A stretch of 62,869 bases of DNA, filler included, from Chlamydiia bacterium (GCA_903848235.1; 5 parts of 5 records of this genome joined end to end with filler, not necessarily neighbours in it); one strand, 5' to 3'. Shown: positions 49,030 through 58,292, counted from the first letter of the whole stretch. The notes: generated by a model not told the origin, from the sequence alone. Numbers and translations: made by a program.

Positions 49030-49150
49030 TATACCTCTTCTTGTTCAAGAATCGAATTTCACGCTTAGAAAAAGCCTCGGGATTTGATCGTCGAATCGCG
49101 AGAGCTTTTTTCTTAAGCGTCAAACCGATTCTTGAACAAGAAGAGGTATA
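49030..49150. repeat. Family A MITE, internally shortened (121 bp)
   Basis: Both TIRs present; lacks the inner hairpin of the 242..405 copy. Confidence 0.88.
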
Positions 49151-49342: not shown

Positions 49343-49442
49343 NNNNNNNNNNNNNNNNNNNNNNNNNNNNNNNNNNNNNNNNNNNNTTAATTAATTAANN
49401 NNNNNNNNNNNNNNNNNNNNNNNNNNNNNNNNNNNNNNNNNN
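49343..49442. other. Artificial contig linker
   Basis: N44-TTAATTAATTAA-N44. Confidence 0.98.
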
Positions 49443-50329
49443 GAAGAAATGTTGAGCACAAAGAAGCGTCGATCGTCTAGATCCATTGGAACTGCCCACT
49501 CTTCGTTACTTGACACAATCAGATGGCGGCAATTATCGATGGGAATCGCGTCCTTGCCCTTGCCTTCGATGATGATTGAAGGATCGGTTATGAATGCCTT
49601 TAAGGCTCCGATTTCCTTCCTAGAACCACCCCAAAGAGCTTCGTTGGCATGCACCAAGTAGGCGTACTTCAAGTGACTGTTGAACTTGCCCATAAGATGC
49701 TCTAGGCTCGTTACCGTGAGAAAATAAGGGCCAAAAATCCTGCCGAAACACTCTACAAATCTGTTTTTACCCGTTCCTTGAAGCCCTCGAAGTACGAGTG
49801 CCGTTGCTAAGAGGGTTGGTTTTTGAATGACACATGCCATCCATTTTCGAACATATTGATAGCTCGGTTCATCGTTGCTGCAGATCACTTCCTTCACATG
49901 TTTCCAATAGAGGCTGCAGTCTCCTTTTTGAGGAGCAACGGCAAATCCCTTGAAGATGTTAAAGTTATGGTCATAGTCTCCGTGCCGTGCAGGATCGAAG
50001 ACAATATTCTCAAATGTTCTTCTTAATGGGTGTTTAAGCCAAAACACAGCTTTATTTCTGGATTTCCCATCAGAATTGATAAAGAAGTCGTTCTCATGGA
50101 AACTCTTAAAAGAGCTTCTGGTGTCCAGCTCAAAAGCCGTATCAGATCTTTGAAACAAAATATGAGTCGTCGAGGTCCGTACGATAGCGTATCTCTTATT
50201 GAACTCCCGAAGAACCTTTTCCTCGGGAGTTAAGGAAAGCTCTATCAGCTTCTCTGCTTGCGATTCTGAAAGCGCCCTGTACTCGGAATAAGGGATCTGC
50301 CTTCCTCGTTCGTTTGTTTGCGCAGCCAT
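49443..50329 (-). CDS. SF3/primase-associated helicase (DUF5906-like), 3'-truncated
   Basis: RGLQGTGKN Walker A, KFNSHL, ANEA, EGKG, SSNE, DDRRF. Confidence 0.85.
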
Positions 50330-50333
50330 ACAC

Positions 50334-50900
50334 TTACCCTATCGTCAGCTTGAGTGCGGATGCATCAAAGGTCTTAAGGTCTATGAGCACCTTTCGACCA
50401 ATTCGTTCCTCACAGTTGCCTACAAGGAAGGTGTCTTTGAAGAAAATGTAATAACGAACGCTATAGGAAGAAAAACTCGCTCTTCCACTAGGAACAGCTT
50501 CACAGGAAGCTATATTTGAGTGGAGTGGAAAATCATGGCTCAGCATCGCCCCCAAGGGGGAAAAAGGCTTAAACTTTTCTAGTGTCTCCGGAGCCGGTTT
50601 TAGACCAGTGAACACCTTTCCGGGTTGCGGGTTTTTTTCTCCCAGACCCCGTACTCGCTTCTGCCTTTTCAATTCCTCGCATAGAAGATAAATGTCTAAG
50701 TAAATATCCAGGGGCATCCCTTTCTCGTACATCTCTTGAAGGGAGCGAAAGAGACATTGATGGTCTTTTGAATGAAGATCTTCCTTCTTCAAAAGAGCAC
50801 AAACAGATTGAACCCCATCGATGCTTGTGATTCCGTATCCTAAGACTGCTAACCCAGATTGTTGAGAAAACGGGAGATCGTTCAGAATGCTCACCTGCAA
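50334..50900 (-). CDS. DnaB N-terminal-domain protein, possibly degraded
   Basis: LPFSQQSGLAVLG..LKKEDL..HQCLF..MYEKGMPLDI..LCEELKR; C-terminal half unrecognised. Confidence 0.6.
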   Translation of the reverse strand: MQVSILNDLPFSQQSGLAVLGYGITSIDGVQSVCALLKKEDLHSKDHQCLFRSLQEMYEKGMPLDIYLDIYLLCEELKRQKRVRGLGEKNPQPGKVFTGLKPAPETLEKFKPFSPLGAMLSHDFPLHSNIASCEAVPSGRASFSSYSVRYYIFFKDTFLVGNCEERIGRKVLIDLKTFDASALKLTIG

Positions 50901-51103
50901 CCTCCATTTTCAGTTAAAGTAGCGCTCTCGACATACCTCTCGAAAGCAGCCACATCGATTAAGTATCTTCCTCCAATTTTCTTCACACATGCCTTCGCAA
51001 CCGGCGCTTCAACATAAATCCAATGATGCCATTGCGGAAGCCGAGGCCATTTATGGCTCCTACAGTATTCCCGAAGCGGGACGATCGTTTCTAGTGTCTG
51101 CAT
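50891..51103 (-). CDS. Excisionase-like small DNA-binding protein
   Basis: 70 aa, AGGAGG RBS, VKKIGGRYLIDVAAFERYV wing motif. Confidence 0.65.
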   Translation of the reverse strand: MQTLETIVPLREYCRSHKWPRLPQWHHWIYVEAPVAKACVKKIGGRYLIDVAAFERYVESATLTENGGCR

Positions 51104-51106
51104 AAC

Positions 51107-51126
51107 ACCTCCTGACAATTGAGACG
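51107..51126. repeat. 20-bp perfect inverted repeat, left copy
   Basis: ACCTCCTGACAATTGAGACG; reverse complement at 56776-56795. Confidence 0.9.
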
Positions 51127-51127
51127 C

Positions 51128-51172
51128 TACGCAATGTAACATTGCGTGTAATTTTACGCAATGCAACATTGC
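51128..51172. promoter_or_regulatory. Tandem palindromic operator-like sites
   Basis: TACGCAATG(T/C)AACATTGC at 51128 and 51155. Confidence 0.65.
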
Positions 51173-51459
51173 ACAAACTGAGATTTTATGTGTTAGGCAT
51201 AACCCTGGACGTTTTTAGAAACATCTCAATATAACTAATTATCGCCAAGAGACACCCTATAGGCATGGCGCACAAGAGTGCTGACCCATCCATATGTAAG
51301 GCATTATCTCATGAAAATGCCCGGACATTGGCGCTGTAATACTGACATCTATTCCAAAACCAGGATTCTAGAAGAAAAAGATCTCTCTATCACAAACTCT
51401 GTTTGGCAAAATTCTTCCGGCCTTGGTAGATTTTCCATTTTAAAATTAAGGCTTTCATC

Positions 51460-54165
51460 ATGAGTCGGATTATTATTCTCCTCCTTCTTTCTCTCCCACT
51501 TCTTGGCGAAAATAATTCGGTTTTAAACTGGTATTCCACGCCGTCAAAGACCGGAAGCGGTAGTCTCACAAACTGCCGCCCTCGCTTGACACGAAAATTG
51601 CACGTGAATCGTTTTTTCCTTGAGACGCAAAGCCCCATGCAGGCCACTCAGACACGATTATTTTACAATTTATTGAACGTCCTGTATGGCCGTCAGCCCA
51701 TCTTCCACATCAACTCAACCAATCCTATTAACAAATCTAAGCTTGAAAACCTCTTCGATCAGGTCAAGAAATCTGTTCTAAAAGCATCTCCGAAGTATTC
51801 ATTTCGAAAAATATCAGATCTTGCCAACATCGATCTTGAGAACCAGGATCAACAATTCATCTTCTTCCAACTTCTGAAGGGTGGCTGCGGGCAATTTATT
51901 CGAGGAGGATGCTGTACCCTTCCCCCTCTCCTCAACTATCTGAGCATAAAAAAACGTCAGAGCTGCCTCGACGTTTACACGGCCTCCAAGTCTGTGCTCT
52001 TTGCTCTTTTTGGAAGCGACGCTGTTGTAAACGATATCCTTTTCCATCGAGCAGAGCTTGAAAAAAGCGATCGAACTGACACTCAGTCTGCTGAAGCAGA
52101 ATTTCGACAAAAATTTGAGCAGTACATTCTTCCACAGATCAATCCGTGTTTTGTCAGTTTTCGAGTCCCCCCATCGATGTCAATACCAAAAGAGGCTAAC
52201 CGGGATTCTGACGAGCCTGTAGCTAGACATGCTATGAGCCGAGATTATTGGAACGAGGAAAGTTATCACTGCTGTCCGCTACATTTTGATGACGCAGTAG
52301 AGATAGCGAATGAAGGCGAAGAAAACGATGAATCAGAATTCATTTCCCAAGATCTAACTATTCAACAAGAGCTTCTTTCTAAAATCCCTGCGATGGGGCA
52401 ACCATGTGATGATTGCGGGGCACCGTCCATATACATAGGCTATTTGGATCGCGACTCAAGAAAACACATCGATCATCTGGAGCGAGAACTTCGTTACACT
52501 CAGGCCCACCCAGAGTGCACGTGCTTATGGCCCGAACTCTCCGAAGAAGCCTCACAAATAAGTGAAGAAGCTTATGGCTTGTATAAACACCTTGTAACCT
52601 CATCACCTCTTGCGGACATGCTTTCGGACTCTGAAGAACAAAAGAGATTCCTTAAGGTTGATAAAGGAGACTTGAACGCTCATGGAGTGGCGGTGTCATT
52701 AATCGCCCTTCAGTTTCGGTTTTCTGATTTTTATGAATTAAAAGAGGAACTTTGCAAATACGCACTGGAAATGTTCGGTAAAAGGCAAATAGGCAGGTAC
52801 TTCAAAATAAAGAGCGAGTTAGACGCTATCTTGGCGTCGCTATATACGAGGTACCTTGATCTTTACAGTAATTGCTTGACAAAGCATCCGACCCCAGAGA
52901 TTGAGCAAGAGATTCTTTTCATGTACCTCCTTGCAGGAAACGGATCTGCACTAGATTCCCCATCCTCTGAAGCTTCCACTCCGATGCGAAAGGGAAGACC
53001 GGCTACCTATCATGTGTTGAAACACAAACACAATAAACAAAAGGCAGTCATTGCAAAGAGCAAGAGGAAGGACGCGTTTTCACTTCAAGCAAGAATTCTT
53101 CTAGAAAAGGGTACGCTATTAAACGATCTTCTTCGATATGAAGAAAGCGTCAAAATATTAAGCGACTCCATTCGGTTGGATCCCTCCAATCGAAACGGCT
53201 ATATAGAAAGAGCATATGCATACCTTGAGACAGACCAAATCTCTCTTGCCCTAGAAGATTATAAAAAAATTAAGGCGTTAAACATTATCCCTCCTTTTGT
53301 ATTTCCAGCCTACCAAAAGGGAGCTGTCGTGGCAAAGGGAGCGGCCTTTTGGTATACAGAAGAAGAGTTAGAATTCCTTTCAGGCATAATCGATGGAATC
53401 GTAAGCAAAGCTGATGAAAGGGTCGAAGAACTTCCTTCTTCGCTTCGCGATTCGTTCACCGATGTAAGCAACGGATTATGGGCATATGTCACAGATCCAG
53501 AGGAAGTGGCACGAGAGTTTACTCTGGCAGCTTATGCTTTAGGAAAATATTGCTATCAACATTATGATGACGATTGGATTCAATATTCCTCAGATCTCCT
53601 AAGAGAGCTTGCTGAGTCATGGACTGATCTTGGCAACTATGAGCGAGGAGAATACCTCGGCAGCATTATTGGCGAGTTTGGGATCGACTTCTTTGCATCT
53701 GCAGGAACACTCAAGGGGGTTCAATATTTTCGAGATCTGAAACGCGCCAATACAGTCTTGACTCTTGAAAGATTGTCTTCTTCTAAAGCCAATGAAATAA
53801 AAATTCTTGAACAAACTAGCAAGGCTGCGACAGCTAGAAGAAAGTTGATTGACGTCGCGAAATCAGGGAAAATCATCGGAAGAAGCATCAATCAACGACA
53901 TCACATAATGCAATCTCATCATGCTTGGGAACGACTCGTTAATTTAACAGGAAACGAAGAAAAAGATTTTAAGGCCGTAGTGAAGTTCCTAGAAGAGAAT
54001 GGAATTTTTAGTAAAGAATTCGAACTTGAAACAAGAGTTGTTAATTCTACTCGGATAAAAATTTATAGAAAGAAAATCGGCAGTGAAACGGTCAGACTGG
54101 AATTTATCAAAAACCCTTCGTCTGATGTGTTTCTTTTGAACAATGGGTGGGTCGAAACGAAATGA
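51460..54165 (+). CDS. Secreted TPR-containing polymorphic toxin with Ntox35-like RNase tip
   Basis: Signal peptide, TPRs (YEESVKILSDSIRLDPSNRNGYIERAYAY), pre-toxin helices, HHIMQSHHAW...NNGWV tip. Confidence 0.7.
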   Translation: MSRIIILLLLSLPLLGENNSVLNWYSTPSKTGSGSLTNCRPRLTRKLHVNRFFLETQSPMQATQTRLFYNLLNVLYGRQPIFHINSTNPINKSKLENLFDQVKKSVLKASPKYSFRKISDLANIDLENQDQQFIFFQLLKGGCGQFIRGGCCTLPPLLNYLSIKKRQSCLDVYTASKSVLFALFGSDAVVNDILFHRAELEKSDRTDTQSAEAEFRQKFEQYILPQINPCFVSFRVPPSMSIPKEANRDSDEPVARHAMSRDYWNEESYHCCPLHFDDAVEIANEGEENDESEFISQDLTIQQELLSKIPAMGQPCDDCGAPSIYIGYLDRDSRKHIDHLERELRYTQAHPECTCLWPELSEEASQISEEAYGLYKHLVTSSPLADMLSDSEEQKRFLKVDKGDLNAHGVAVSLIALQFRFSDFYELKEELCKYALEMFGKRQIGRYFKIKSELDAILASLYTRYLDLYSNCLTKHPTPEIEQEILFMYLLAGNGSALDSPSSEASTPMRKGRPATYHVLKHKHNKQKAVIAKSKRKDAFSLQARILLEKGTLLNDLLRYEESVKILSDSIRLDPSNRNGYIERAYAYLETDQISLALEDYKKIKALNIIPPFVFPAYQKGAVVAKGAAFWYTEEELEFLSGIIDGIVSKADERVEELPSSLRDSFTDVSNGLWAYVTDPEEVAREFTLAAYALGKYCYQHYDDDWIQYSSDLLRELAESWTDLGNYERGEYLGSIIGEFGIDFFASAGTLKGVQYFRDLKRANTVLTLERLSSSKANEIKILEQTSKAATARRKLIDVAKSGKIIGRSINQRHHIMQSHHAWERLVNLTGNEEKDFKAVVKFLEENGIFSKEFELETRVVNSTRIKIYRKKIGSETVRLEFIKNPSSDVFLLNNGWVETK

Positions 54166-54755
54166 ACAATAAATTACACCATATCATTTTAAGCAAACAA
54201 TGGCAGCAACTTACAGACGAACATACCCCCCAATCTGCTGCTCAGTGTCTTTCATTTGAAGAAGCAATGTCAGTGGCTTACGACATGTTTTTCGAAAATT
54301 TTTTGGATTCCCCCAAAATTCGTGATTTCGCATTGAATTTGTTTTTTGCAATCAGAAAACATTATATCCAGAATTGGGACAAAGATTGGAAAAATGATAT
54401 TTTTTTAGCAGATTTATGTAGGATCGGCTACAAATACGATGAATGTTATCATTGCTGTATGAGGGCATATAAGAAGTTCAACGATCCACCGTCTGCGATT
54501 CTTCTTGCTTTAGCAGGTTGTTATAATGTTCCTAAGCCTCTGGTTTCGATAGATGAAGTTGAATTGTGGCTACAACAAGCAATTCAAAAAGAGCTTTCAT
54601 ACGAAGCTGCATTGCAATTAAGGGGTATTTATCTGGATAAAGAGGATCAAGCCCAAATTGATCATTGGACGAAAATAGCTGATGAAGCCGAACGAAATAA
54701 CATTCATACAGCCTCATGCACTCCAGATATTTTCAAGGATAAGCCAACAGGATAG
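54162..54755 (+). CDS. Putative cognate immunity protein (helical, TPR-like)
   Basis: ATGA overlap with the toxin stop; AT-rich. Confidence 0.65.
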   Translation: MNNKLHHIILSKQWQQLTDEHTPQSAAQCLSFEEAMSVAYDMFFENFLDSPKIRDFALNLFFAIRKHYIQNWDKDWKNDIFLADLCRIGYKYDECYHCCMRAYKKFNDPPSAILLALAGCYNVPKPLVSIDEVELWLQQAIQKELSYEAALQLRGIYLDKEDQAQIDHWTKIADEAERNNIHTASCTPDIFKDKPTG

Positions 54756-54772
54756 AGTCGAAAACACCCCTT

Positions 54773-55657
54773 TTAGATGTTTTTCGTGAATTCTTTGAAG
54801 GTAAACTCGGGATCTAAGCCCAATTCAGCAGCAACTTTCTTCAGAGCCCGAAATGGTGTCGTTGTTGAAACTCTTTCCTCGTCCTTTCCGGCAAAAACAT
54901 AGCCTTTCTTGCGACCCTGGGTATATTTCTTAATATCTTCAAAAAGATGCCGAGGATAAGACACTTGTTCCAAGAGGTTGATCTTAAGCTGCGAAAAATC
55001 CACTTCCTCGATTTTTACTGAAAGAACCTCTTCTAAAGCTCGCTGTCCCCCCAGGTAAAACATCTTCGCCAGGATTTGCTCACGAAGATCGAGATGGCCC
55101 AAAACTTTTAGATAGGTCTCAAAGGCAATTGCTCTCTTAAAAGAGGCAAGGCGATCAAAGTCTTTAGCTTCAGAATTATACCCGCTGGTTTTCTTGGAAA
55201 GCCATTTGGAAAATTCCTGATACAAAAGAACTGCCTCCTCTCGTTTATGAATCGGCCAATCTTGAAAACATCGAATGTCCTCGATGATTCGAGAAGGGTC
55301 CTGAGAAGAGAGATCTTGAAGAGTGGTTGTTTTCTTTTTATTGAGAGTAAGAGGCAGCAGACCGGACTGCACAAGGTCGCGCATGATGTCGAGATGCCGC
55401 TTCCCAAATGTTTTGTCGGCGCTCACCGCTTCGCCCCATAACAATACCATTGCAGAAAGAGGAGAGCTGGCTATGCTCTCCTTAAAAGCGGCTACTTTTT
55501 GTTGAAGATCTTGGGAGGTCTTTACAAAATCTGACGTGAGGACGAAAATCTTCTTTTCGTCCTGCTGAAGATCAATGGAAAGGCAGGACCTGAGCAGTTG
55601 CTCATACGCCTCTCTTTCCTTCGAATGCTCTTCTATGCCTTTACGTATACGCGCCAT
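54773..55657 (-). CDS. Chlamydial plasmid pGP7/pGP8-like recombinase-fold protein lacking the catalytic C-terminus
   Basis: REQILAKMFYLGGQRALEEVLSVKIEEVDF, VSYPRHLFEDIKKYTQGRKKGYVF; ends before HxxR/Tyr. Confidence 0.65.
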   Translation of the reverse strand: MARIRKGIEEHSKEREAYEQLLRSCLSIDLQQDEKKIFVLTSDFVKTSQDLQQKVAAFKESIASSPLSAMVLLWGEAVSADKTFGKRHLDIMRDLVQSGLLPLTLNKKKTTTLQDLSSQDPSRIIEDIRCFQDWPIHKREEAVLLYQEFSKWLSKKTSGYNSEAKDFDRLASFKRAIAFETYLKVLGHLDLREQILAKMFYLGGQRALEEVLSVKIEEVDFSQLKINLLEQVSYPRHLFEDIKKYTQGRKKGYVFAGKDEERVSTTTPFRALKKVAAELGLDPEFTFKEFTKNI

Positions 55658-56720
55658 GACTTGCTATCCCTAAAACTTCTTCATTCATCCGGCACACAAT
55701 TCTTGCTGTTGAAGAAACAGACAAGTGACTATACCGCTTGATCATCGCCAACGTTTTGTGACCCAATACGGCCCCTACTTCAATCGCAGAAGCCCCTTCC
55801 ATGGTTAGATGAGAAGCGGCTGTATGTCGTAAGGTATGGAAGCAAATTTCAAGGCCTGCTTCCTTAACGGCCATCTCCCAAGCAGCCCTAATATCAGCTG
55901 GCTTCTCTCCATTTCCGCTCGGGAATACGTACGGACTGAGAATAACTCTTTTCTTTTTCTCTTCCAAGAGACAACTTGCCAAAATTGGACTTAAGGGGAT
56001 CGTTCGATCCTCTCCATTTTTCGTGTCTCGAAAGGTTGCGGTGTTCCTCGAAAAATCAACGTCGTCCCAGGTAAGACCTAAGATCTCTCCCTTTCTAGCA
56101 CCGCTGCACACGGCAAACAAGGCCACAGGGTACAGGTGAGAGCTTTTGCTCTTTTTACATGCCGATAAAAGCCTTTCGATCTCTTCCCTGCTCAAGAACC
56201 TCTCTCGAGACCTTCCCTCCTTGTAACGGGAAATCTTCGACACTGGATTTTCCTTAAGCCAGTTCCATTCTCGTACGGCAATGCTGAATGCACCGCTTAA
56301 GGTCGCTAGATACCGATTTGCTGTGGATTGAGACCGAAAGGTTCCCTGGGGAGTCTTCTCCTTCAGCAGTTGCTCTTTACAATCAGAAATTACCGATGGT
56401 GAAATGTGACAGAGGTAATAGTCTTCGAGATGGTTTTTCCACCACAGAAGCTGCATCTTATATTTTGCAAAAGACTTGGACTTGGTGTGAACCGCGAGTT
56501 CCAAATATCTATCGACAAGTTCGGAAAAAGTATGCTCTTTGCTTTCCGCTTTGCCAAAGTATCGACCTTGCCGAACGTCTGCTTCCATTTTGGAAGCCCA
56601 CTCTTTGGCCTCGCGTCGTGTCGGAAAACTCTCGGAAACCAGAGGGGATCCTGACAACCGAATGCGGACACGATAGGTCGTTGTTCCCGATGGATGAACT
56701 CTTTTTTGAATGGACGCCAT
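55641..56720 (-). CDS. int: Tyrosine integrase
   Basis: SGARKGEI, TKN, FHTLRH, LGH, KRY; N-terminal arm-binding domain. Confidence 0.95.
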   Translation of the reverse strand: MASIQKRVHPSGTTTYRVRIRLSGSPLVSESFPTRREAKEWASKMEADVRQGRYFGKAESKEHTFSELVDRYLELAVHTKSKSFAKYKMQLLWWKNHLEDYYLCHISPSVISDCKEQLLKEKTPQGTFRSQSTANRYLATLSGAFSIAVREWNWLKENPVSKISRYKEGRSRERFLSREEIERLLSACKKSKSSHLYPVALFAVCSGARKGEILGLTWDDVDFSRNTATFRDTKNGEDRTIPLSPILASCLLEEKKKRVILSPYVFPSGNGEKPADIRAAWEMAVKEAGLEICFHTLRHTAASHLTMEGASAIEVGAVLGHKTLAMIKRYSHLSVSSTARIVCRMNEEVLGIASHGAYT

Positions 56721-56775
56721 AAACACTTCTCCTGATTTTTCCCGTACTGGACCACCAGTGGACCAATACGCAATT

Positions 56776-56795
56776 CGTCTCAATTGTCAGGAGGT
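56776..56795. repeat. 20-bp perfect inverted repeat, right copy
   Basis: CGTCTCAATTGTCAGGAGGT. Confidence 0.9.
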
Positions 56796-56828
56796 CATGC
56801 TTTTGCATAACCCATTCATACTTAACGA

Positions 56829-56911
<83 letters not shown>

Positions 56912-57159
56912 AGATAAAGAAAAGCGACTTTTTTCCCTCTCGACCATAAACCCACACTCTCTTGGGGGTGGATGAGCCTGCAAAGCGATTCTGTCGATGC
57001 ACATGGAAAACGTCACAGGTACTTTAGCATCTCACCATTTCTGGACTCAAGAGACTTTTCTTGTCCCTAGCGGTTGACTTCCCTCTTCTGGATCATCAAT
57101 ACTAGGACGTTGAGGCACAAGAATCAAACGACGTTCAGTAACCAAAAGATACTAAATCT

Positions 57160-58192: not shown

Positions 58193-58292
58193 NNNNNNNN
58201 NNNNNNNNNNNNNNNNNNNNNNNNNNNNNNNNNNNNTTAATTAATTAANNNNNNNNNNNNNNNNNNNNNNNNNNNNNNNNNNNNNNNNNNNN
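58193..58292. other. Artificial contig linker
   Basis: N44-TTAATTAATTAA-N44. Confidence 0.98.

Follow-up and report, generated by a model that had tools for sequence, protein, structure and literature searches.

The Island and Its Repeat Pair

The DNA analysed here (the window, 62,869 nucleotides (nt) long) comes from a Chlamydiia bacterium (GCA_903848235.1) and contains, next to a tRNA-Leu(UAA) gene, a small integrative island that carries two copies of one 20-nt sequence in inverted orientation. The window is a pseudo-molecule in which N runs with TTAATTAATTAA linkers (49343–49442 and 58193–58292) join contigs, and contigs neighbouring across a linker need not adjoin in the genome. Both copies of the repeat lie inside a single 8,750-nt contig (G000:C176), cut on the left in a primase gene and on the right in cysS, so that their 5.65-kb spacing is real within that assembly. 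Read in the direction of the tRNA gene, the island is laid out as tRNA-Leu, S′, int, pGP8-like gene, (cargo), xis promoter (Pxis), S, xis, DnaB-N-like gene and primase-helicase, where S and S′ denote the two copies.

The tRNA-Leu(UAA) gene (56827–56912; minus strand, as are all features given below unless stated otherwise) supplies, with its 3′ half of ~55 nt, the att core of the island family. It is followed by int (55641–56720, ATG at 56720), which encodes a tyrosine integrase of 359 residues with matches to the Pfam families Phage_integrase (1.2e-28) and Int_N and no DUF4102-type match; residues R209, H295, R298, H321 and Y330 of Int are invariant in 14 homologues. The next gene (54773–55657) encodes a pGP8-like recombinase-derived protein of 294 residues that ends before the catalytic HxxR..H..Y region. 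Between this gene and the xis promoter, on the plus strand, lies the cargo (51460–54755), the putative toxin-immunity genes of the original prediction: a protein of 901 residues with weak, sub-threshold TPR matches only in Pfam and an overlapping open reading frame (ORF) of 202 residues without a Pfam match, neither of which has a PHROG match. The cargo at this position differs or is absent in other islands, and there are compact homologous islands without it. The operon downstream of Pxis begins with xis (50891–51103), encoding a 70-residue xis-like winged-helix protein, and continues with a 188-residue protein containing a DnaB N-terminal-like domain (50334–50900; PF00772, E 4.2e-6) and a DUF5906/VapE-like primase-helicase (49443–50329), which is cut by the contig end and has its C-terminal part on contig C161 of the same genome.

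The 20-mer ACCTCCTGACAATTGAGACG stands on the plus strand at 51107–51126 and its exact reverse complement at 56776–56795 (20/20 identity), with 5,649 nt separating the two arms. Read on the minus strand, S (51107–51126) is CGTCTCAATTGTCAGGAGGT, followed by GTT and then by the ATG at 51103; it contains the Shine-Dalgarno (SD) sequence of xis and forms the predicted 5′ end of the xis-operon leader. S′ (56776–56795, minus strand), which reads ACCTCCTGACAATTGAGACG on the tRNA-Leu/int strand, is the exact complement of S and consists of an anti-SD and an island-specific tail. The original prediction for this locus had described a perfect 20-bp inverted repeat about 5.65 kb apart with an AGGAGG Shine-Dalgarno in the left copy, and both descriptions are borne out, the SD lying upstream of the ATG of the 70-residue minus-strand gene. 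It had also placed the right copy between the tRNA and int, which is correct, at 33 bp past the tRNA 3′ end, which is not: S′ is 31 nt from the tRNA 3′ end and 55 nt from the int ATG.

The repeat pair found no match in 100 dinucleotide-preserving shuffles. Across the whole genome (2,352,728 bases in 284 contigs), the 20-mer occurs with up to three mismatches only at these two places, and its reversed-pattern control gives 0 matches. Together with the presence of the same pair in 22 other independently assembled islands, these scans rule out chance or an assembly artefact as its source.

Conservation of the Pair in an Island Family

A sample of 401 genomes from the same order yielded relatives of the xis-like protein in 37, and a search with the integrase alignment returned 80 loci, the close ones from metagenome-assembled genomes of Chlamydiota (Rhabdochlamydiaceae, Parachlamydiales and others). 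The island set used throughout comprises those with both int and xis on the DNA examined, 23 with the window included. Outside this count stand loci on contigs too short for both ends (L033, L047 and L009), loci with no int of the island family nearby (L044 and L049), loci with no xis on the contig (L061, L063 and L068) and a decayed island (L070). In terms of gene order, all 23 islands have tRNA-Leu(UAA), int, the pGP8-like gene and xis in the same succession and orientation. The pair is likewise present in 23/23: the best ungapped inverted match between the tRNA–int spacer and the region upstream of xis is in every case the same element, 14–33 nt long, with near-perfect within-island identity over 17–26 nt and sharp edges, and S′ sits 47–58 nt before the int ATG. 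The islands with this pair form a family in Chlamydiota: small, P4-style integrative elements inserted at tRNA-Leu(UAA).

As a direct repeat, the att core, which is the tRNA 3′ half, recurs at the far island end (attR) in L046 and L034; this places S′ within the island's int-proximal arm. The two xis-bearing loci without a family int nearby, L044 and L049, have no inverted copy (best scores 11–12), and by this observation S′ goes with int. In the decayed island L070, which has a broken int and no xis, S′ is still there. The remnant of a second island follows attR in L034 (18487–18840) and consists of a tRNA 3′ half, S′, a deleted int and a 3′ fragment of the pGP8-like gene. Among distant loci (46 of the 80, namely those with Int 36–45% identical and L070, with short loci and partial matches left out; mostly Proteobacteria and a few Chlamydiota), the best inverted matches score 8–14 against 7–13 in the reversed control, so that no pair rises above background. 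Several of these distant loci carry two ATGGTGCAA repeats upstream of int in place of the pair.

The window's own genome holds further 55-nt copies of the tRNA-Leu 3′ half, on contigs C60, C81, C129 (three copies) and C259 (L132–L137). Near-identical island-end sequence precedes the attR copies on C60, on C81 and, on C129, the first of the three, and two of the C129 copies are followed by S′-like elements (ACCTCCTATCCATTRAATCAAC) and degenerate int starts; these copies suggest that a single genome contains several family islands, or islands in tandem. A 534-nt contig of run X2 extends from 57181 through the whole tRNA-Leu gene and then into the sequence that follows the attR copy on C60 (L132), and it is the empty-site (attB-like) form; run X1 shows the same loose end at the tRNA 3′ end (56827). 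The empty-site contig means that the island is polymorphic, or excising, in the samples of that study.

Co-variation of the Two Copies

The SD part of the element (TTAGGAGG or TCAGGAGG) is common to most islands, and the 12–14 nt 5′ of it vary between islands (GTCTCAATTGTC, TTCCAGTTATT, TAGCACYCGTTGTT, GTTTCGAKAGTT, TGATCCAATGRTT, TTGATYTCAATGGTT and TGTTACCAYTCTTC). Over the 14 nt 5′ of the SD, the two copies agree at 12.3/14 positions within islands versus 8.8/14 between islands in the set of 23, and at 12.1/14 versus 7.4/14 in 11 representative leader types, for which 0 of 20,000 partner permutations reach the observed sum. The clearest single case of joint change extends into the SD core itself: in L039 both copies read CGGAAG there and are identical at 25 of 26 positions. 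Identity of Int across the family goes down to 53–59%, a distance at which a neutral duplicate would have decayed, which argues for selection on the match between the copies. Paired conservation and covariation of the copies in homologous islands, which the original prediction had put forward as its own test, is thus borne out, with both copies kept in 23/23 islands and changing together.

The Element at the xis Promoter

The predicted xis-operon promoter (51133–51161) comprises a −35 TTGCGT (51161–51156), a 17-nt spacer and a −10 TACATT (51138–51133). It scores below a strict consensus scan, and its layout is conserved in homologues. S begins 6 nt after the −10 hexamer in the window; in 22 of the 23 islands its distance from the best −10-like hexamer is 3–11 nt (median 6); for the 23rd (L036) the automated pick took another hexamer, and TACATT is found by eye 7 nt upstream. 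In L040, L041 and L048, S lies 57–76 nt upstream of the xis start, yet still directly after the −10, so that S tracks the transcript 5′ end rather than the start codon.

Two palindromic operator-like sites, ACGCAATGT-T-ACATTGCGT and a weaker one (~51127–51175), overlap the xis −35 and −10. A TTGCG/CGCAA half-site is conserved across islands, and in the window's clade a half-site also abuts S′. The xis leader of L047 (G176:C253, ~1150–1190) carries ATAACCTCCTCC just upstream of GGATAGGAGGT, where it may act as a local anti-SD.

The product of xis was characterised by its predicted structure. Pfam, PHROGs and a PDB profile search gave no match for the protein, and Foldseek gave none for its model at E ≤ 0.001. 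The AlphaFold model, built with 20 homologues, has a predicted local distance difference test (pLDDT) score of 77.5, and six of its top eight structural matches (VIA, full library) are excisionases or recombination directionality factors (RDFs) or P2 Cox, with middling Z scores of 4.6–6.0: P2 Cox (4lhf), 6.0; a putative excisionase (2kvv), 5.7; RdfS, 5.4; GIsul2 Xis, 5.2; Tn916 Xis, 5.2; and Pukovnik Xis, 4.6. The xis-like label given to the gene in the original prediction is therefore backed by fold and not by a Pfam or PHROG match. The xis homologue is apparently broken in L053 (N-terminal frame change) and L108 (stop after 29 codons); S and S′ are kept in both.

A DNA-binding protein of excisionase-type fold, with P2 Cox as its top match, brings in the main rival to an RNA-level role for the pair. 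S and S′ could be copies of one protein-binding DNA site, placed downstream of the xis promoter, where occupancy would mean autoregulation or a roadblock, and in the int-proximal att arm, where it would direct excision and/or repress int; the candidate readers are the xis-like protein and the catalytically dead pGP8-like protein. This is a serious rival, which we judge possible and somewhat unlikely. S occupies about +1 to +20/+25 of its own promoter, a classic repressor position, S′ is separated from the att core by 31 nt within the island arm, and P4 offers a parallel in that its excisionase Vis is described as a repressor of the P4 int promoter (PMC7286903). The pGP8-like protein is present and divergent (26–78% identity) and could co-evolve with a variable site. 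However, in the helix and wing of the xis-like protein, which are expected to read DNA, W19, P20, R21, W25 and I29 are invariant in the 20 homologues, and L22, Q24, H27, W28, Y30, K41, K42, G44, G45 and R46 are at least 90% conserved. With these residues near-invariant and the 12–14-nt tail of S variable between islands, Xis is unlikely to be the reader of that tail. Moreover, there is one copy per place and no array of boxes; the near-perfect identity, with sharp edges over 17–26 nt, is more than protein sites usually need; and the element always includes the SD or anti-SD, which a DNA site has no reason to keep. Separate conserved candidates for protein sites exist in the palindromes of Pxis and in two TGGNCCA motifs in the int leader.

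The Element in the int Leader

The int gene lies directly downstream of the tRNA gene in the same direction, at a gap of 100–110 nt in most islands, and a scan of the window's minus strand gave neither a terminator-like site nor a strict promoter-like one between the two. In many islands an AT-rich −10-like hexamer can be seen by eye 5–14 nt past the tRNA end, a possible int promoter. The spacer begins with a trailer hairpin, GTTATG-N6-CATGAC (56794–56811; GTTATG..CATAAC in most islands), which abuts S′. The int SD region, TCAGGAG (56729–56735), is complementary to CTCCTGA within S′. Against Rfam, only the tRNA reaches threshold, and there is a sub-threshold mir-33 match over the palindromes. 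A small outward ORF running from the SD and ATG of the right copy through the tRNA was considered and rejected, as it meets an immediate stop in L040, L042, L045 and L050 and has no ATG in L035 and L036.

Folding of the int leaders (105 nt upstream plus 15 nt of int) places bases of the int SD region in pairs with S′ in all 23 minimum free energy structures (2–10 of 13 nt; at least 5 in 22 of the 23). When the 5′ half of S′ together with the upstream hairpin arm is paired with the int translation initiation region (TIR), an island's own combination is predicted to be more stable than cross-island combinations (mean −16.8 versus −13.2 kcal/mol), and 0 of 5,000 permutations over 14 representatives match this. 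A two-sided change is seen in AUAGCCUCCUGA/UCAGGAGGCUAU (AUAGCC/GGCUAU) in L071 compared with AUAACC/GGUUAU in L058; the UGA/UCA extension is limited to one clade. In these models S′ behaves as a cis RNA element, an anti-SD on the int SD, and the few independent events make this support rather than proof. At the expected pGP8-like position of L071, just an 18-residue ORF was recovered.

The same leaders were evaluated for pairing with the xis operon. S′ against its own xis leader gives a mean of −34.9 kcal/mol versus −21.9 kcal/mol cross-island, which 0 of 5,000 permutations reach, and in RNAcofold predictions the S:S′ duplex forms with a gain of 7.8–29.1 kcal/mol in 22 of the 23 islands.

Taken by itself, the cis pairing invites another explanation, in which S′ is only an anti-SD that attenuates int and its likeness to the xis leader is the by-product of an old duplication of a translation initiation region. 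The universal predicted cis pairing and the greater stability of own over cross pairs agree with it, as does the fact that right copies keep a perfect GGAGG complement where the left SD has decayed (L040 and L048); structured 5′ untranslated regions (UTRs) that lower int expression are, furthermore, described in ICEKp1 (PMC13023037). What it leaves unexplained is the S′ tail. In the 12 nt 5′ of the SD, 11.2/12 positions agree with the xis leader and 3.7/12 with the int TIR, and this stretch varies between islands while being matched within them; a neutral duplicate, moreover, would be expected to decay where Int is just 53–59% identical. We regard a purely cis-acting S′ as improbable.

Between S′ and the int SD, all 23 islands conserve the element TGGNCCA-N4-TGGNCCAG (56747–56765). 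RNAalifold reports here a conserved hairpin, CUGGNCCA-N4-UGGNCCAG, with 10 pairs, 5 of which have changes on both sides. The element could be an RNA hairpin with covariation or equally two palindromic protein sites 11 bp, one helical turn, apart; in the latter case Xis and the arm-binding domain of Int are the candidates to bind it.

Orientation of the Segment Between the Copies

The original prediction had offered, as its second proposal, that the repeats are recombination sites inverting a toxin-immunity-pGP8-int block. In terms of the features identified here, the inverted segment would hold int, the pGP8-like gene, the cargo and Pxis, and inversion would cut the promoter from xis as in an inverton. 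The arrangement is suitable, since perfect or near-perfect inverted repeats of 17–26 bp flank a segment that bears a promoter and recombinase-like genes, and the copies evolve in concert, as is seen in crossover sites. However, the islands, drawn from independent assemblies, are in one orientation in 23/23 cases and inverted in 0. Contigs of four runs (X1, X2, X5 and X6; three studies) contain no strand-change joint, weak evidence at a depth of ~3–6 and with contigs dropping rare forms; the only joint seen when these runs are compared with the 8,750-nt contig is a 73-nt skip in cysS (X5), with none at S or S′.

The candidate recombinases also count against inversion. The pGP8-like family (281–319 residues, 26–78% identity) keeps the first catalytic Arg motif and has a C-terminal end ...LDPEFTFKEFTKNI; its alignment to Int stops at residue 291, and the protein ends ~12 residues later, before Int H295/R298/H321/Y330, in 20/20 aligned members. 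From its sequence the pGP8-like protein is probably a DNA-binding relic rather than a recombinase. Int is catalytically complete, but has the tRNA 3′ half as its core site. S shows no dyad symmetry around a spacer beyond CAATTG, and the inverted state would aim the promoter at the antisense strand of an essential tRNA, where there is no conserved ORF. These results do not support the inversion proposal, which we consider highly improbable.

In the neighbouring contig, 3′ of a DUF4143/AAA ATPase gene, the window also contains an imperfect inverted repeat of 49 nt (49030–49150; 78% complementary, 23-nt loop).

A Proposed RNA–RNA Regulatory Module

We tentatively favour the interpretation that S and S′ are the two halves of an RNA–RNA regulatory pair, with the tRNA-trailer/int leader acting as an antisense RNA on the start of the xis operon. 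S would be the first ~20 nt of the xis-operon mRNA, from the predicted start through the SD towards the AUG. S′, located in the tRNA trailer that is also the int 5′ leader, would have two possible partners. The first is the int SD on the same RNA (7–12 bp): the CCUCCU core of S′ would fold back on the int SD and start, keeping Int translation low. The second is the whole 5′ end of the xis-operon mRNA, with which S′ could form a 17–26-bp duplex over the 5′ end and SD, such that translation of the xis operon would be blocked or its mRNA subjected to decay or termination. The excision/replication operon would be silent while the leader RNA is in excess, a condition expected for an island behind a host tRNA gene. 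Extended complementarity over the 5′ end and SD of a target is a feature of antisense control of the IS10 RNA-OUT and P4 CI RNA type, and it was found here over 14–33 nt in 23/23 islands. That both RNAs are made and meet, that the tRNA promoter feeds the leader, and that the effect has the direction given are points that we infer.

Several observations weigh against this RNA–RNA interpretation. Among the sequencing runs listed as containing this DNA, none is recorded as RNA. Mismatches between the copies comprise 16 wobble-compatible transitions, 11 incompatible transitions and 17 transversions and bear no clear RNA signature, the excess of 16 over 11 not being significant; the lack of wobble bias also suits a DNA site, as do the excisionase-type fold of the xis-like protein and the repressor-like position of S. 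The co-variation tests count related islands, among which independent events are few. Drift is seen in the closest relative (L034/G002, of the same genus and with 91% Int identity), whose S and S′ disagree at 4–5 of 20 positions. A ~75-nt insertion in L042 puts two terminator-like hairpins between the tRNA and S′ and may block read-through. Finally, the idea that the xis leader in turn opens the int SD and so activates int was not supported: in cofolds only 2 of 23 islands are left with three or fewer of the 13 SD-region nt cis-paired.

A further step would make the pair a topology sensor, an RNA-only means of sensing the integration state. In the integrated island the host tRNA-Leu promoter would yield a trailer RNA with S′ that serves as an immunity antisense on the excision/replication operon, and int would be closed in cis. 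In the circular form, with all genes in the same direction, transcription starting at Pxis and reading around would yield a single molecule with S at the 5′ end and S′ before int. The Xis/Int balance would then switch with the element in or out of the chromosome. We view this extension as doubtful. The original prediction had likewise proposed that tRNA read-through into the int leader supplies an antisense to the xis ribosome-binding site and acts as an integration-state sensor; the core of that proposal stands, in that both copies are kept in 23/23 islands and co-vary, S is at the predicted transcript start and S′ is a predicted cis anti-SD, and its sensing and tRNA-promoter components are conjectural.

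Comparison with Known Systems

The silencing of excision and replication genes during integration and the setting of the Int:Xis ratio are understood in few model phages and ICEs (integrative and conjugative elements). The family delineated here, previously undescribed and with variable cargo, belongs to an understudied, mostly uncultured phylum and offers attL/attR sites, tandem copies and an empty-site form in the same metagenome study, together with a sequence-readable device of ~20 nt with matches to the int SD as well as to the start of the xis operon.

The closest likeness is to phage P4. The P4 operon is headed by a small excisionase-type gene and ends in a primase-helicase, and the island has the same arrangement, one operon with the small excisionase-type gene first and the primase-helicase last. 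P4, described as integrating in a leucyl-tRNA locus with int near attL (PMC7286903), shares with the island its small size, its insertion at a tRNA-Leu gene and the position of int beside att. The P4 replication operon is kept off, the state of immunity, by an antisense CI RNA that base-pairs with the operon's leader, according to PMC4825925; silencing of replication genes by a short antisense RNA on the operon leader is what we propose for the island. The P4 RNA is cut from the leader of the very operon that it controls and terminates transcription at two targets, whereas the island's element is kilobases away, in the int leader and tRNA trailer. Unlike that of P4, it is complementary to its target's 5′ end and SD, and it has a second predicted partner in the int SD. 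No relation of the island element to the P4 immunity RNA was found by sequence or in Rfam, and a further difference is that the island's Int gives no DUF4102-type match.

The dual-function excisionases, among them P2 Cox and 186 Apl, which bind promoter DNA as well as att, and P4 Vis, resemble the island in having a small winged-helix protein first in an operon and sites in both the promoter and the att arm. They bind arrays of short boxes, whereas the island has one 17–26-nt element per place, with a tail that does not track the Xis helix and an SD/anti-SD inside. The lambda sib element acts in cis at the 3′ end of int through RNase III. Like it, the island has an RNA element that is linked to int differently in the integrated element and in the circle and that could tie Int and Xis expression to that state; unlike sib, the island's element precedes int, at its 5′ end, and its complement is the leader of another operon. 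Invertons of the fimS type share with the island short inverted repeats around a promoter-bearing segment beside recombinase-like genes, but the island is found in one orientation (23/23), its pGP8-like protein is without the tyrosine region, and the 2.4–5.6-kb segment holds its own integrase.

In integrated ICEKp1, the promoter of the host tRNA-Asn gene is described as driving int, with stem-loops in the 5′ UTR that lower full-length int mRNA (PMC13023037). The island likewise has int directly downstream of a host tRNA gene and co-directional with it, behind a leader of ~100 nt that is predicted to be highly structured. Unlike ICEKp1 as described in that source (PMC13023037), the int leader of the island is complementary to the excisionase/replication operon. 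Our literature searches, supplements aside, found no account of the island family or of an int leader with complementarity to the leader of an excisionase gene. Mobile elements with antisense control, int leaders with structure and int genes driven by tRNA promoters are known already; what appears to be new, in a newly delineated island family, is that the int leader and the start of the excision/replication operon are complementary to each other, a match that is conserved and co-varies and for which the mechanism offered is hypothetical. If the proposed RNA pairing is correct, the element would be a compact and portable switch that joins int expression driven by a host tRNA promoter, as in ICEKp1, to antisense immunity of the P4 kind; and if the topology sensor were also correct, it would be a new, RNA-only way to sense the integration state, tying excision to the activity of the host tRNA promoter.

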